Virus record (IMG/VR): IMGVR_UViG_3300021256_000066
Span: 32,001-96,000 of that record
Source: a virus
Taxonomy: Duplodnaviria > Caudoviricetes
Reading direction: 5' to 3' (one strand)
Length of the DNA stretch: 64,000 bases
The notes below the pieces were generated by a model, which did no database searches, was not told the origin of the DNA, and saw only the letters and a program-made list of their open reading frames with translations. The translations under genes were made by a program, and so were the position numbers. The first letter of the stretch is position 1. Every line of letters starts with the position of its first letter. Shown piece after piece: positions 8,426 through 53,346 of this stretch.

Positions 8426-8446
8426 CCCCCCCAAAAAAAAGGCGAT

Positions 8447-31842: not shown

Positions 31843-32126
31843 TGCTCTACCTTTATCTTAATGGTATTGCCACACTTATCACACTTAATAGTCAGTTCAT
31901 CCTTGGGCAGTGTTTCTTCTTGAATATAGCCAATACCTTCTGGAGCAAACAGCTGCCAGAACTCTACGTCAAGTGCTTCGGCAATACGCTCAAAAACAGC
32001 CATCGAAGCTGTATATCGGCCACTTATGGTATTATTCAGTTGCTGAATCGACATATCCAGTTTCTCGGCCAATTCTTTCTGCGTCATGCCCTTTTGTTTA
32101 ATGATTGATTTTATTTGTAAGTTCAT
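31839..32126 (-). CDS. XRE-family HTH regulator
   Basis: IKQKGMTQKELAEKLDMS...IAEALDVEFWQLF, C-terminal CDKCG. Confidence 0.88.
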   Translation of the reverse strand: MNLQIKSIIKQKGMTQKELAEKLDMSIQQLNNTISGRYTASMAVFERIAEALDVEFWQLFAPEGIGYIQEETLPKDELTIKCDKCGNTIKIKVEQ

Positions 32127-37621: not shown

Positions 37622-37951
37622 ATGAAACAGACGACGGAAACAAATTACAAGCATTTCTACACCAAGGGCAACACCGACTACTTCATCACGAAGGAGGGCA
37701 CGGTGCTGAGCGCAAGCGACCCTGACAGCGACCCGCAGACGTGGCGCGAGATAGCCACCTATAACGGCAAGGGCTACCGCCGCGTCAGGCTGCAGGGTAA
37801 GACGTTCAAGGTACACCGCCTCGTGGCAGAGGCCTTCGTGCCGAACCCCTACAGCCTGCCAAACGTGCTCCACAAGGACGGCGATCGTGAGAACAATCAC
37901 TACACCAACCTGGAGTGGAGCTCACGCCAGAGTAATCATCCACGAGCATGA
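37622..37951 (+). CDS. HNH endonuclease (HNH_3 type)
   Basis: VHRLVAEAFVPNP...VLHKDGDRENNHYTNLEW. Confidence 0.9.
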   Translation: MKQTTETNYKHFYTKGNTDYFITKEGTVLSASDPDSDPQTWREIATYNGKGYRRVRLQGKTFKVHRLVAEAFVPNPYSLPNVLHKDGDRENNHYTNLEWSSRQSNHPRA

Positions 37952-38097
37952 CTGACCGACCGATGATACTGGGGCGGTACAGCCCGAGCCAGAACGGCAT
38001 AGTGGTAAGTCCATCGGGGATTGCCCTGTGCCTTGCATGGGGGGGTAACGGGCACGACACCGATAAACCGAAAATACTGATAGAGTATGATATTTAG
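37948..38097 (+). CDS. MTase variable-region-like module 1 (G7 at 38039-38045, in frame)
   Basis: MTDRPMILGRYSPSQNGIVVSPSGIALCLAWGGNGHDTDKPKILIEYDI. Confidence 0.7.
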   Translation: MTDRPMILGRYSPSQNGIVVSPSGIALCLAWGGNGHDTDKPKILIEYDI

Positions 38098-38275
38098 AGT
38101 GACCAATACTGCGCAGCCGAAGCCGATACGGGGGGGGCAAATCAGAGCAGTCAACACGACGGGCGACCTGTGTGCCGCCACGCTTACCACGAGATACGAT
38201 GCCGTCGGCCCTACGAATATAATTACGCTGGCACACTATCCGATGACCGTAATACTGATAGAGTATGAAATGTAG
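38087..38275 (+). CDS. Module 2 (G8 at 38130-38137, in frame)
   Basis: KPIRGG..VNT..ATLTTRYD..TLAHYPMTVILIEYEM; paralog of module 12. Confidence 0.7.
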   Translation: MIFRVTNTAQPKPIRGGQIRAVNTTGDLCAATLTTRYDAVGPTNIITLAHYPMTVILIEYEM

Positions 38276-38418
38276 TGGAATAATAAGAATAGGCAACCTC
38301 TTCTACGACAGTTTCCGCAGTGGATTCGACGGAAACGTTCAGGGCTGTATGGGTGTCACTCAGACGGTCTTGGCTGCCAACGGGGGGGGTATATCTTGGT
38401 AGAATATGACAACCTATA
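38265..38418 (+). pseudogene. Module 3 (G8 at 38382-38389, frameshifted; G9 restores YILVEYD end)
   Basis: MKCSGIIRIGNLFYDSFRSGFDGNVQGCMGVTQTVLAANGGG, then premature TAG. Confidence 0.65.
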
Positions 38419-38588
38419 AGGCAATCGGCTGGACGCGCAGCGGCAACGGCAGGGGCGATGTGGACCGCTACCACCTCCGCGACATCTCCAACACCATCAC
38501 CTCGTTCTGTGGGGGGGGTATTGGGAAGGATTCTGCCACCGGCATGTATAACACCACACCGTATATACTCGTAGAATATGAACTATAA
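38406..38588 (+). CDS. Module 4 (G8 at 38511-38518, in frame)
   Basis: DISNTITSFCGGG...NTTPYILVEYEL. Confidence 0.7.
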   Translation: MTTYKAIGWTRSGNGRGDVDRYHLRDISNTITSFCGGGIGKDSATGMYNTTPYILVEYEL

Positions 38589-38773
38589 CAACTCGCGACT
38601 GAACGCGATGATCATGGGGGGGGCAATGGGAGCCGAACTACCACGGCGAGATGCTCGACACCTACAACCAGCAGGCACACCGCCACACGGCGATCACCAT
38701 ACTGGCAGGCATATCGTCGCGCAACCACTACTTCGTGTGTGAAGAACGTTTACCATCAAAACTTAGAAAATAT
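38578..38773 (+). pseudogene. Module 5, continuous with the MTase frame but frameshifted at G8 (38616-38623)
   Basis: With G7 or G10: MNYNNSRLNAMIMGGQWEPNYHGEMLDTYNQQAH...NHYFV continuing into the MTase. Confidence 0.65.
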
Positions 38774-40246
38774 ATGATTGCAAAAATTTATCCTGACGGG
38801 CACCCTGACTTGCAGGGAAAGAAAGACCCTACGCACCCAGTGCGCTATTTCGACATCCGAAAACTCACTCCACGCGAGTGCTATTCACTGATGGGCGTGC
38901 CGCCGCAGCAGATCGACACGCTGATGAAAACCGAAAAGAGACCATATATGGCATGGGTGGGCGTAGATGCCGAACTGGCTGTGTTTGGACTGGAGCCGAG
39001 TGCCACGCGCCGCGAGGTGGATGAAGCATATCGCGAGGCTATCGAGAGCCTGAATAACCAGGCAGCTGACGATGCAGACGCACAGGAAGAAACCGACGAA
39101 GATACCGCACGGCTGATGGCAGAGAAGCCCGAAGACAATGCCGAGGAAACCGCGCTGATGCGACAGAACTACGAGATGAACTATCAGCGCATCATCGCTG
39201 CCAGTCAGGAGCAGCGTTACGGTGACGTGCAGATTATTGCCAACTCATCGCATTACAAGCTGGCGGGTAACTCCATCGTCTGCGACGTACTGATGTATAT
39301 CTACGAGGAATTGCTCTACCCCACGTACCGCCGACTGCCGCAGGAGCAGACCGACCTATTCGCCCAGCCACAGTTCCGCTTGACCCGAGACTGGAAGAAA
39401 GAGCCGCTGAAGTTGGTAACACTTTGCAGCGGTTACGACAGTCAGGCAATCGCTATGGATATGCTGCAACAGCGATATCCGGACTTCCGATGGGAACTGA
39501 AGGCATGGAGCGAGTTCGACCCCGAGAGCAGCCGACCATTGGAAGAGCAGCCCGCCATAGTGGCCCATAATCTGCTGTTCCCACAATACAAGGATTTGAA
39601 CCGGGGCGACATGACCAAGGCTGATTGGAGCGACCTCGCCGATGCAGGTATCGACCTGCTGACATATAGCACTCCGTGTCAGTCCATCTCACAGGCTGGC
39701 AAGCGAGAGGGTATCAAGAAAGGTAGTGGCACTCGCAGTGCCGTACTTTGGAGTACCGAAGAAGCTGTTCGCCAGATGCGACCGAAGGTGCTGCTGCAGG
39801 AGAACGTGCGGGCGCTTATCAACAGCGTGAACATGCCCGACTTCAAGGAGTGGTGCAGTCTGCTGGAGAGCCACGGCTACGTGAACTTCCTCGCGCCCTC
39901 GTTCCCGACGGTCTGGGGCACCGACAAGCGCGACAAGAAGACCGTGCCGGGCATCCTGAACGCCAAGCACTACGGCGTGCCACAGAACCGCGAAAGGGTG
40001 TATATGGTCTCCGTGCGTGCCGACATGCTCGGCGGCACGCAGTACGAGTTTCCACGTCCTTTCCCGCTCGACAAGTGCATCGCCGACGTGCTGGAGGACA
40101 ATGTGGACGAGCGCTTCTTCCTAAAGCCCGACTCGGTGATCAAGTTCCTCACCGTCAACGAACAGACCGACGGCAGCGACATACACTATATGGTAACGGA
40201 CCACAAACTGAGTGATGAGGAAATCAGACGTGCAAGAGGTGAATAG
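38651..40246 (+). CDS. Circularly permuted C5-cytosine DNA methyltransferase (motif order IX-X-I...VIII); alternative start at 38774
   Basis: IRKLTPRECYSLMG (IX), YKLAGNSIV (X), TLCSGYDSQ (I), YSTPCQSISQAG (IV), LQENVRAL (VI), GVPQNRERVY (VIII). Confidence 0.93.
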   Translation: MLDTYNQQAHRHTAITILAGISSRNHYFVCEERLPSKLRKYMIAKIYPDGHPDLQGKKDPTHPVRYFDIRKLTPRECYSLMGVPPQQIDTLMKTEKRPYMAWVGVDAELAVFGLEPSATRREVDEAYREAIESLNNQAADDADAQEETDEDTARLMAEKPEDNAEETALMRQNYEMNYQRIIAASQEQRYGDVQIIANSSHYKLAGNSIVCDVLMYIYEELLYPTYRRLPQEQTDLFAQPQFRLTRDWKKEPLKLVTLCSGYDSQAIAMDMLQQRYPDFRWELKAWSEFDPESSRPLEEQPAIVAHNLLFPQYKDLNRGDMTKADWSDLADAGIDLLTYSTPCQSISQAGKREGIKKGSGTRSAVLWSTEEAVRQMRPKVLLQENVRALINSVNMPDFKEWCSLLESHGYVNFLAPSFPTVWGTDKRDKKTVPGILNAKHYGVPQNRERVYMVSVRADMLGGTQYEFPRPFPLDKCIADVLEDNVDERFFLKPDSVIKFLTVNEQTDGSDIHYMVTDHKLSDEEIRRARGE

Positions 40247-40378
40247 GGGGGGCAAATCGGCGGTTGCTACTGGAAACAGAAGGACGGCTATGTGCGCCGT
40301 CCGCTCTGGGGACTGTCCCGCACGCTGAAAGGCGATGGCAATCATCCTGCAGGAATAATCATTGAGTATGAATTATGA
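40215..40378 (+). pseudogene. Module 6 (G7 at 40246-40252, frameshifted; G8 restores). Its 3' part is in frame with the MTase behind the TAG
   Basis: GGQIGGCYWKQKDGYVRRPLWGLSRTLKGDGNHPAGIIIEYEL. Confidence 0.65.
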
Positions 40379-40509
40379 AACAGACACCGAGAGCGTGCAT
40401 CTACTACAACTTGTCGCTGATGTATAACGACGGCATGAAGTGGGACTTGGTGGCCAAGACGGTCATCGGCGACACGCATCCACAAGCGCTATTGATAGAG
40501 TATGAGTAG
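40375..40509 (+). CDS. Module 7 (no tract)
   Basis: MKQTPRACIYYNLSLMYNDGMKWDLVAKTVIGDTHPQALLIEYE. Confidence 0.65.
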   Translation: MKQTPRACIYYNLSLMYNDGMKWDLVAKTVIGDTHPQALLIEYE

Positions 40510-40702
40510 CATTACCCCCCCCATATTGCGGCAAGTCCCTGTTCGGCGAGTGCGGACGGAGTGGGCAAAAGCCGTCAGGCGGCAGACTGGTACCAACCCT
40601 TTTCAGGCCAAGCAACTGGAGGAGTTTGTGTCGGACTACATGCCTACCATCACCGCCAGCGCAAACATCGAGAACTATATCAAAGTAGAATATGAAATAT
40701 AG
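40502..40702 (+). CDS. Module 8 (C8 at 40515-40522, in frame)
   Basis: RTEWAKAVRR...MPTITASANIENYIKVEYEI. Confidence 0.7.
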   Translation: MSSITPPILRQVPVRRVRTEWAKAVRRQTGTNPFQAKQLEEFVSDYMPTITASANIENYIKVEYEI

Positions 40703-40864
40703 AATACAGACAACAAGCACCATGCCGATATACGAAGGCCACCTGGTAAAACCCGGATGGCACCACAAGGCTTGTGAGGTGCTGAATGTGGGGGGGTATC
40801 GACATGTATTCACACCCAGAGCAACAATCTGCTTCAAAAAATCATCATAGAGTATGAGTTATGA
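40692..40864 (+). pseudogene. Module 9 (G7 at 40790-40796, frameshifted; G8 restores)
   Basis: With G8: ...EVLNVGGVSTCIHTQSNNLLQKIIIEYEL. Confidence 0.65.
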
Positions 40865-41024
40865 AACCAATTAGTTATAAACTTGGAGTCCACATCGTAG
40901 GTCATCGCCTGGAGTGGAAAGGTGGGGGGGTATTGAGAGTAATATGTGGAAGAACATCTGCCCTTGCATCCGTATGAACGATTACAAATGTCCAATGAAT
41001 TGTCTGATAGAGTATGACGATTAA
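40861..41024 (+). pseudogene. Module 10 (G7 at 40924-40930, frameshifted; G8 restores)
   Basis: With G8: ...GGGGIESNMWKNICPCIRMNDYKCPMNCLIEYDD. Confidence 0.65.
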
Positions 41025-41162
41025 GACGCGATATATCAACTGCAACTGCGACAATACGGTCAAGTCGATACTGGCCGGATGTTACAAGTTCGGTGCTGCC
41101 ACTCTGCTTAGGGGGGGCAAGCCAGTATGACATCGGTATTGTTTGAATATGAATACGATTAA
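41014..41162 (+). pseudogene. Module 11 (G7 at 41111-41117, frameshifted; G8 restores)
   Basis: With G8: ...TVKSILAGCYKFGAATLLRGGQASMTSVLFEYEYD. Confidence 0.65.
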
Positions 41163-41349
41163 ACTGCGACAGACCACATCGGCCACGGCCAAGCCTATAC
41201 GGGGGGGGTACTTCCTGCCCGTCAACACAGCATCAGGAGGTGTCGCTTGCACGCTCAACACCCGCTACGACGGCATGCAGCTGCCAGAAGACATCCTCAC
41301 GCTGGCCCATTACCCCAAGACCGTCGTGCTCAGAGAGTATCATTTATGA
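41149..41349 (+). CDS. Module 12 (G8 at 41201-41208, in frame)
   Basis: KPIRGG..VNT..ACTLNTRYD..TLAHYPKTVVLREYHL; paralog of module 2. Confidence 0.7.
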   Translation: MNTIKLRQTTSATAKPIRGGYFLPVNTASGGVACTLNTRYDGMQLPEDILTLAHYPKTVVLREYHL

Positions 41350-41461
41350 AGGACGAATCAACAGCAGTCAGGACGGCATCGTCATCAGCGCCCGAGGCAT
41401 TGCCCTCACCCATACCGCTGGTCACGGCAATTGCCCGAAGATATTGATAGAATATGAGTGA
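41339..41461 (+). pseudogene. Module 13 (ATC where the junction ATG is expected; no tract)
   Basis: IIYEGRINSSQDGIVISARGIALTHTAGHGNCPKILIEYE; paralog of module 1. Confidence 0.6.
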
Positions 41462-41708
41462 AGCGAAACGATACAGCACAGCAGGTCGCCCGTTCCTTGA
41501 AATCGCCACGAGGGGGGGGCAGACCGTACTGCGAATCCGACAAGCCACCGAACAGGGCTATATCGAGTGCGACCCGCAGGGTGTCTGCGACCTTGCCTAC
41601 CCGGAGAGCGAACTGCGCCGTGCCCGTGTCAAGGACCGAGGCCGCGTCTGCGGAACGCTGATGAGCGACAATCAGCAGTTCTGCGTCTTCATCGAACATG
41701 ACATATAG
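41454..41708 (+). CDS. Module 14 (G8 at 41512-41519, in frame)
   Basis: IRQATEQGYIEC...DLAYPESELRRARV...CGTL resembles the ATKKGY...PNSKTRRGRV segment of phage C5-MTase variable regions. Confidence 0.75.
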   Translation: MSEAKRYSTAGRPFLEIATRGGQTVLRIRQATEQGYIECDPQGVCDLAYPESELRRARVKDRGRVCGTLMSDNQQFCVFIEHDI

Positions 41709-53135: not shown

Positions 53136-53346
53136 ATGGCAAAGAAAGTATTTCTCGGAAATGGACTAAGCCGCACGGCGATGGTGTTCAAGATTGCGAC
53201 GCTGGCAGGACATAAGCTGACAGTGCCTGAAATGAACCGCATCAAAGATATCAACCCCCGCGCCCTGGAGCGAGTCTATGACTCCGTATTGGGGGGGGGT
53301 AAGTAAGGGCGACGCGCTGTTTGCACTCAGACTTGTATTGAAATAA
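53136..53346 (+). CDS. Small protein truncated at a G9 tract (stop at 53306; G8 would extend it to 53346)
   Basis: MAKKVFLGNG...VYDSVLGGGK* versus ...LGGVSKGDALFALRLVLK*. Confidence 0.55.

Follow-up and report, generated by a model that had tools for sequence, protein, structure and literature searches.

A stop-start joint probably links the specificity cassettes of a split phage C5 cytosine methyltransferase

Phasevarions depend on homopolymer or repeat tracts in Type III mod or Type I hsdS and hsdM genes, where tract slippage alters the specificity or the activity of methylation. Among the C5 cytosine methyltransferases, the circularly permuted type H enzymes (M.BssHII, M.Alw26I, M2.Eco31I, M.Esp3I and M2.BsaI) carry motifs IX and X before motifs I to VIII and have their N-terminus in the variable region, and fragments of C5 methyltransferases that are split next to the target recognition domain (TRD) complement each other (PMC5944983). 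Here we analyse a locus in a 64-kb stretch of tailed-phage DNA (Caudoviricetes; positions 32,001 to 96,000 of the IMG/VR record IMGVR_UViG_3300021256_000066, hereafter the window), which is part of a 129.5-kb viral contig. In this locus 14 mini open reading frames (mini-ORFs, cassettes M1 to M14) of 45-85 amino acids flank a methyltransferase core, five upstream and nine downstream, and consecutive cassettes meet at a short motif, DTWGARTATGA. We interpret this motif as probably being an overlapping stop-start joint between the specificity cassettes of a split phage C5 methyltransferase, which acts as a frame reset and as a cassette boundary. The start-stop joint itself is the part that we hold with good confidence, and we place less confidence in the absence of polar effects between cassettes and in an exchange by microhomology.

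The motif has 11 matches in the window, all of them on the plus strand, in direct orientation with none inverted, and inside positions 38080-41457. The number expected by chance is 0.45 with a maximum of 4, and 0 of 100 dinucleotide-preserving shuffles reach 11. A 17-mer with the motif at its end is present in identical copies at 38074 and 38252, and the motif recurs in the same arrangement in 16 related viral contigs and 50 metagenome contigs. Comparisons over 67 loci comprise the window, the related viral contigs and the metagenome loci, while a smaller set of 10 loci comprises the window and nine relatives. An initial annotation, made from the letters of the window, had listed the copies of the motif and noted that each next module begins, shifted by +1, at the ATG inside TAT-GA, with modules 7 and 10 starting at an ATG that overlaps the stop. 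All of its positions and variants are correct on re-reading the sequence, and the ORF listing agrees with its description of the starts, those of modules 7 and 10 being the ATGs at 40375 and 40861 (TTATGA). At 11 of 11 window junctions an ATG lies 2-17 nucleotides (nt) ahead of the upstream stop. The junctions, all on the plus strand, are as follows:

38080..38090, plus strand: junction M1/M2, ATAGAGTATGA, ATG 38087
38258..38268, plus strand: junction M2/M3, ATAGAGTATGA, ATG 38265
38399..38409, plus strand: junction M3/M4, GTAGAATATGA, ATG 38406; the homology of M4 in eight loci begins here
38571..38581, plus strand: junction M4/M5, GTAGAATATGA, ATG 38578
40361..40371, plus strand: junction M6/M7, ATTGAGTATGA; M7 starts at the stop-overlapping ATG 40375
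40495..40505, plus strand: junction M7/M8, ATAGAGTATGA, ATG 40502
40685..40695, plus strand: junction M8/M9, GTAGAATATGA, ATG 40692
40847..40857, plus strand: junction M9/M10, ATAGAGTATGA; M10 starts at the stop-overlapping ATG 40861
41007..41017, plus strand: junction M10/M11, ATAGAGTATGA, ATG 41014
41142..41152, plus strand: junction M11/M12, TTTGAATATGA, ATG 41149
41447..41457, plus strand: junction M13/M14, ATAGAATATGA, ATG 41454

In frame 0 the motif encodes the conserved C-terminus L-(I/V)-E-Y-(D/E), the last strand of each cassette, and this peptide motif explains the skeleton of the DNA motif. Cassette ends were detected at the protein level in order not to presuppose any codons, and codon use was compared with the background of the same loci. 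In the 10 loci an ATG lies in the Tyr/His codon at 75 of 80 internal joints, against 2 of 13 array ends or joints directly before the ATG of the core (Fisher p=5e-9). The same contrast appears over the 67 loci (p=2e-19), where unique contexts in loci with a GC content of at least 0.46 were counted:

Internal joints (67 loci): ATG in the Tyr/His codon 192; other stop-overlapping ATG 12; no ATG 3
Array ends (67 loci): ATG in the Tyr/His codon 4; other stop-overlapping ATG 0; no ATG 25

A stop-overlapping or abutting ATG is present at 204 of 207 internal joints, and the codon is TAT or CAT at 199 of these 207 against 11 of 29 ends. In the 10 loci the Tyr/His codon ends in T at 77 of 80 internal joints (background 0.50). 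Where His replaces Tyr, it is encoded by CAT if a cassette comes next and by CAC if none does. With nothing downstream, the codon is TAC or CAC, or the residue after Tyr is often non-acidic (N, F, L or S); the homologue of the terminal cassette M14 in relatives likewise ends in TAC or CAC and lacks the ATG.

The codons ahead of the tyrosine are unevenly constrained. The Glu codon is free (GAA:GAG 76:57, background 0.46), whereas the Leu codon is xTG at 100 of 133 joints (background 0.44) and the Ile codon ATA at 82 of 113 (background 0.25). The initial annotation had reasoned that freely varying synonymous sites would speak against a function of the motif; such freedom exists at the Glu codon and not at the other sites. 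The bias in the Leu and Ile codons places TGA and/or TAG two to three codons upstream in the frame of the ATG, and a TGA at -9 and/or a TAG at -6 in this frame is present at 124 of 133 joints. More generally, at 178 of 208 joints the frame of the ATG holds a stop within the preceding 12 nt. The third frame is closed by the TGA of the ATGA, and the own stop of the cassette follows 0-4 codons on. In 286 of 302 occurrences of the peptide EY(D/E) a stop comes 0-5 codons later, and 15 of the 16 exceptions sit in an unrelated gene, with one (in locus L058) unexplained. Up to the joint, the alternative frames of the C-terminal half of the cassettes stay open more often than in codon shuffles (48% vs 25%, and 35% vs 24% for the other frame). 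Nucleotide-level selection acts on the bases that create the stops and on the ATG, the latter solely where a further cassette depends on it.

Such constraints bear on the view that the motif is a mere footprint of the peptide LIEYE, in which the ATG and the stops would be by-products and the mini-ORFs would start elsewhere or be silent or decayed. The peptide is indeed conserved, fused forms have a homologous strand just ahead of the core, and GAR-TAY-GAN yields TATGA with moderate probability. However, neither the difference in TAT/CAT use between internal joints and ends, nor the frequent loss of the Asp/Glu after Tyr at the ends, nor Leu and Ile codon biases far from the background would be expected from the peptide, and the reading frames are under purifying selection from the junction ATG onward (ratio of nonsynonymous to synonymous substitution rates, dN/dS, ~0.15, in six cassette families). 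We regard this explanation as very improbable.

The purifying selection on the mini-ORFs argues that they are translated genes. The cassettes in the window, except for M5 and M13, which are given with the core and with the exceptional joint below, are:

37948..38097, plus strand: M1, seven-base G tract (G7) 38039-38045 in frame; C-terminus LIEYDI; dN/dS ~0.15
38087..38275, plus strand: M2, G8 38130-38137 in frame
38265..38419, plus strand: M3, frameshifted at G8 38382-38389; the out-of-frame reading stops on the TAG of the next junction
38406..38588, plus strand: M4, G8 38511-38518 in frame
40215..40378, plus strand: M6, frameshifted at G7 40246-40252
40375..40509, plus strand: M7, without a homopolymer tract
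40502..40702, plus strand: M8, C8 40515-40522 in frame
40692..40864, plus strand: M9, frameshifted at G7 40790-40796; the out-of-frame reading stops on the junction TAG 40848-40850
40861..41024, plus strand: M10, frameshifted at G7 40924-40930
41014..41162, plus strand: M11, frameshifted at G7 41111-41117
41149..41349, plus strand: M12, G8 41201-41208 in frame; degenerate C-terminal joint TAT-CAT without an ATG in the Tyr codon
41454..41708, plus strand: M14, the last cassette, G8 41512-41519 in frame; C-terminus FIEHDI

The mini-ORFs resemble TRDs, with T-L-type motifs followed by Gly-Gly and the L-(I/V)-E-Y-(D/E) terminus. The database protein P0003 (603 amino acids, PF00145) is an in-frame fusion of an M12-like unit with a permuted core, the join reading ...LIEYE, a five-residue turn TNDNI and then the core, MIAQI..., which supports the cassettes being TRDs of this enzyme family. 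Searches with the sequence of M1 and with a profile of M2/M12 gave no match to PDB chains at E<=10. An AlphaFold2 model of P0003 (26-row alignment) has a pLDDT (predicted local distance difference test) score below 50 over the whole TRD part including the LIEYE strand, and is unreliable there. Silent donor cassettes of the pilS or vls type are rejected in view of the selected start codons and the low dN/dS. Recoding of TAG is likewise rejected, as the cassette stops mix TAA, TAG and TGA and all ORFs read well under translation table 11.

Eleven of the mini-ORFs carry a G7 or G8 tract and one a C8 tract, which amounts to 12 tracts in 3.6 kb, while the other 60 kb of the window hold two G/C runs of at least seven bases. 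These two runs, a G9 at 53291-53299 and a C7 followed by an A8 at 8426-8440, may be slippage-prone sites in other genes. With tract lengths read from assemblies, unique cassettes with a G8 are in frame in 49 cases and out of frame in 8, those with a G7 in 3 and 64, and those with a G9 in 6 and 14. Cassette M4 bears a G6, G7, G8 or G9 depending on the locus. The length of the tracts thus varies among relatives and toggles the frame, as in contingency loci. In a distant, AT-rich clade (L010-L016 and L048-L058; core ~55% identical) the array and the junction motif are present with almost no G tracts, and the Gly-Gly of the cassettes is replaced, e.g., by W-G. The presence of the joint in a clade nearly without tracts suggests that the joint is older than the hypermutable tracts.

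From these observations we propose the following mechanism. At the protein level the motif supplies the strand with which each TRD-like cassette ends. T-GA is kept across the third base of the Tyr/His codon and the first bases of the Asp/Glu codon, which gives the following cassette its ATG, shifted by +1, and the Leu and Ile/Val codons are biased to xTG-ATA or xTG-GTA, creating TGA and/or TAG upstream in the frame of that ATG. The length of the G tract presumably sets the frame of the ribosome, which could leave the tract in any of the three frames; in whichever frame it arrives, it would terminate within ~20 nt of the next ATG and could then restart there. Each cassette would in this way be a separate, independently switchable mini-gene without a polar effect on those downstream. 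Finally, each cassette has the same 11-17 nt at its two ends, and the joint is the boundary at which genomes have acquired, lost or relocated cassettes. Two out-of-frame readings in the window, those of M3 and M9, terminate precisely on the TAG of the junction. The translational coupling that the initial annotation had suggested finds support here, since the motif ATG is selected at the nucleotide level only where a cassette comes next, overlaps the last codons of the upstream ORF and has stops in three frames gathered around it.

A second suggestion of the initial annotation was that the motif is a programmed +1 frameshift site, which would join cassettes and core into one polyprotein with many TRDs, comparable to the multispecific methyltransferases of Bacillus phages. 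Every junction does step by +1, multispecific C5 methyltransferases with tandem TRDs in one chain are known (going by titles in the reference list of PMC8936443), and the step from M12 to M13 lacks an ATG. The database ORF P0001 (128 amino acids), a rare in-frame tandem, runs through two cassette-like units without meeting a stop at their joint. The conserved element is, however, an initiation codon, kept only where a cassette comes next, and a slip site needs none. In 93% of the L-(I/V)-E-Y joints a TGA or TAG closes the +1 frame two to three codons before the ATG, so that only GAR-TAT-GAN is left for a slip, and by inspection of the sequence none of these codons re-pairs in +1. The stop in frame 0 lies at no fixed position, 0-4 codons off and beyond variable sequence, which leaves no fixed slow codon. 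Moreover, cassettes occur on either side of the core in any order, and a polyprotein would need up to 13 successive slips. A frameshift that concatenates the modules is hardly credible under these circumstances.

The M12-to-M13 step is explained by its poly-G tract. No locus with M13 has the ATG at this joint, and in 12 of 12 unique loci the M13 frame extends upstream without a stop as far as the G tract of M12 (50-92 codons). In the window this frame is:

41201..41461, plus strand: alternative frame from the G tract of M12 into M13; TRD part of M13 ~41333-41461; no own start codon

In L022, which has a G7 where the window has a G8, one continuous ORF runs from the ATG of M12 through the alternative frame into M13 (6186-6503 of L022). 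Judged from the sequences, M13 appears to be reached by a change in tract length and not by initiation or ribosomal frameshifting at the joint, and the missing ATG is in line with an ATG being retained only at joints that make use of it. M12 and M13 together resemble a three-state switch on one tract, yielding M12, or an S/T/P-rich alternative frame of the C-terminal half of M12 followed by M13, or a short or junk product; this arrangement is seen in the window (41149-41461) and in L022, L001, L003, L004, L021, L023, L028, L029, L033, L034 and L043.

The comparison of related loci provides insight into the movement of the cassettes. Their order and content differ in nearly every relative, and the fixed module order that the initial annotation named as evidence against its proposals is therefore not found. 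M4 precedes the core in the window, L002, L004 and L009 but follows it in L001, L005, L006 and L007; M2, M3 and M9 are likewise found on either side of the core, depending on the genome. M9 adjoins the core in L029, and M8 directly follows the core in L027. Losses are of cassette size, as in L022, which lacks M9-M11 between M8 and M12, and in L026, which lacks M11 between M10 and M12. In eight aligned copies of M4 with their flanks, the similarity begins at one motif and ends at the next. Of 228 ends of blastn high-scoring segment pairs (HSPs) in the arrays, 108 lie at most 12 nt from the centre of a motif, against a null of 13.5% (p=5e-35). The G tracts as crossover points are rejected, with no enrichment of HSP ends there (10.5% vs a null of 9.2%). 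The breakpoints identify the motif as the cassette boundary, and it is the only sequence common to all cassettes. Rearrangements breaking at the motif, which the initial annotation had proposed to look for in related genomes, are thus present.

Whether the motif is primarily a crossover sequence at the DNA level, used through microhomology or as the site of an enzyme such as a HNH endonuclease, with its start and stop features secondary, is a separate question. The variable order and content, the clean cassette-sized gains and losses, the homology blocks that start and stop on the motif and the conserved neighbouring HNH endonuclease gene are all in its favour. On the other hand, GAA and GAG alternate freely and the second codon is ATA, ATT, GTA, GTT or TTT, which is unlike a sequence-specific site, and the only fully fixed bases are the ATG, which is relaxed at the array ends, although recombination could still profit from a site there. 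Next to the array we saw the HNH endonuclease gene but none for a recombinase. Nor does the motif resemble the site-specific recombination sites of shufflons or invertons, as its Glu and second codons vary synonymously and its copies are all direct. Boundary breakpoints could also result from selection for intact overlapping genes. A primary role in crossover seems unlikely to us; the crossover site of the initial annotation stands as a pattern of variable order, of cassettes on either side of the core and of breakpoints on the motif, while the synonymous variation within the motif tells against a dedicated site. The exchange of cassettes may proceed by microhomology of the motif, may be brought about by the HNH endonuclease, or may merely reflect selective filtering.

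Several points weigh against the stop-start joint as we describe it. The tests treat joints and HSP ends as independent though many are homologous, for which dropping identical 100-nt contexts is a partial correction. The bias to TTG, ATA and ATT and away from ATC also fits a preference for A/T-rich start regions without a Shine-Dalgarno sequence, and selection for upstream stops is not separable from this preference. Breakpoints at the boundaries are also expected if selection purges recombinants with broken cassettes. The frame reset is imperfect, as the out-of-frame readings of M6, M10 and M11 stop 19-47 nt before the next ATG. Reinitiation, the absence of polarity and the very existence of cassette peptides, which would act in trans on the core, are suggested by sequence features.

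The core and the gene upstream of the array complete the locus:

37622..37951, plus strand: HNH endonuclease ORF (Pfam HNH_3, E=1.5e-9); its stop overlaps the ATG of M1 (ATGA 37948-37951)
38578..40246, plus strand: N-terminal part of M5 and methyltransferase core; ATG of M5 at 38578, open frame of the core 38612-40246, internal ATGs 38651 and 38774

The core is a C5 cytosine methyltransferase (PF00145, E=1.3e-37, residues 313-515). Its catalytic motifs I, IV (PCQ), VI (ENV) and VIII (QxRxR) are present and invariant in a 12-sequence alignment, and the motif order IX, X, I, IV, VI, VIII is the circular permutation of type H. In a HMMER comparison with M.MpeI (4dkj), core residues 28-53 align to chain residues 335-360, 146-186 to 355-395 and 275-448 to 110-274; the N-terminal part of the core accordingly matches motifs IX and X of M.MpeI and the later part motifs IV-VIII. 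The N-terminal part of M5 is one base out of frame with the core at G8 38616-38623, and in the window the C-terminal part of a TRD lies ahead of the core only in the frame starting at 38612/38651. At the other end, the D-E codons of the core (GAT-GAG) hold the +1-frame ATG 40215 of M6, and relatives use the same device of an ATG in xAT-GAx.

The core occurs in three forms among the relatives. In the first it starts at MIAKIY and has no TRD (L001, L003, L004, L008 and L009); in the second it is joined via the G tract to cassette M5, which with the G7 of L005 becomes an in-frame fusion; in the third it is fused to an M4-like TRD (L010-L013). As cores without a TRD exist, at least some cassettes must be expressed for DNA recognition. 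The core of relatives carries a poly-C tract of its own just after motif IX (C8-C10, in V-P-P-P codons), at positions 6215 in L002, 193 in L003, 6107 in L004, 6250 in L005, 6218 in L006 and 4048 in L007. The C10 of L005 and the C9 of L007 disrupt the frame, and the window has CCGCCG and no tract at this place. Between motifs IX and X lies an acidic insertion of ~110 amino acids (window ~38930-39240; core residues ~55-155 counted from 38774), without a Pfam match, which is missing from the shorter cores of L010-L013 (373 vs 490 amino acids).

At least 19 related loci have a homologue of the HNH gene ahead of the array, and in L009 it sits between two cassettes. The gene may act in the exchange of cassettes, or it may be a homing element. 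A blastn search of the locus against the GenBank phage collection gave no match.

It is possible, and we put it forward tentatively, that the motif is a universal adapter, the cassettes being free-standing, trans-acting TRD peptides that serve as specificity subunits for the TRD-less core. A cassette would then dock via its last strand (LIEYE) beside the first strand of the core, and the joint would supply at once the docking strand, the next start, the three-frame stop and the microhomology for exchange. If this were true, the phages of a population could express, at random, any combination out of a dozen methylation specificities and exchange cassettes with relatives.

The stop-start joint would explain how a dozen hypermutable mini-genes can lie head to tail without interference, and it would be a compact solution to the independent phase variation of many units in one operon. 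It also points to a C5 methyltransferase whose TRD comes as exchangeable small proteins, an arrangement that is not known to have been described among C5 methyltransferases and that would parallel, in a phage, the phase-variable specificity subunits of Type I systems. Such a system suggests bet-hedging between escape from methylation-sensitive restriction and avoidance of methylation-dependent restriction, and the cassettes with their joint could become a parts list for methyltransferases with swappable specificity.

In literature searches we found no such three-frame reset joint, and no phase-variable or split multispecific phage C5 methyltransferase of this kind. Operon overlaps of the ATGA type are similar in that the downstream start falls within the final codons of the preceding ORF or directly beside them, with no spacer and with the start under selection. 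In contrast to these, the joint described here lies within a conserved peptide motif, recurs up to about 14 times in series, always steps by +1 and has stops in three frames, which make sense only because the upstream ORFs carry a slippage-prone G tract. With the phasevarions the locus shares the shift of frame by tract slippage, here with tract lengths that differ between close relatives; phasevarions, however, have one tract per gene and lie on bacterial chromosomes, whereas up to 12 tracts are found here in a 3.6-kb phage locus, one per cassette and insulated by the motif.

The multispecific phage C5 methyltransferases (SPR, phi3T, rho11s, H2 and M.phiBssHII) are likewise phage-encoded and have one core with serial TRDs of ~40-60 amino acids. 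Their TRDs are part of one polypeptide, whereas here each unit has its own ATG and stop, the core is permuted and flanked on both sides, and most units bear a G tract. With stops after the motif and successive cassettes in different frames, the array is not a set of tandem TRDs in one chain. Type H enzymes retain the TRD in their chain, whereas several cores of this phage family begin at the post-TRD strand and have no TRD. The split M.AquI alpha/beta and the artificially bisected M.HhaI, M.SssI and M.MpeI are a precedent that makes a detached TRD-bearing piece plausible; those enzymes keep the TRD on motifs IX-X, whereas here the TRD alone would be a free subunit, cut at both ends and present in many versions. 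The boundary or linker sequences at phage mosaic joints are comparable in having a short shared sequence at the edges of modules with which breakpoints coincide, but here the 11-17 nt that are shared belong to coding sequence, within genes that overlap, and not to the space between genes. Each part is thus known from other systems, and it is the combination that is new: detached TRD-like mini-genes, insulated by an element in which a peptide end, a start, a three-frame stop and a boundary for exchange coincide.

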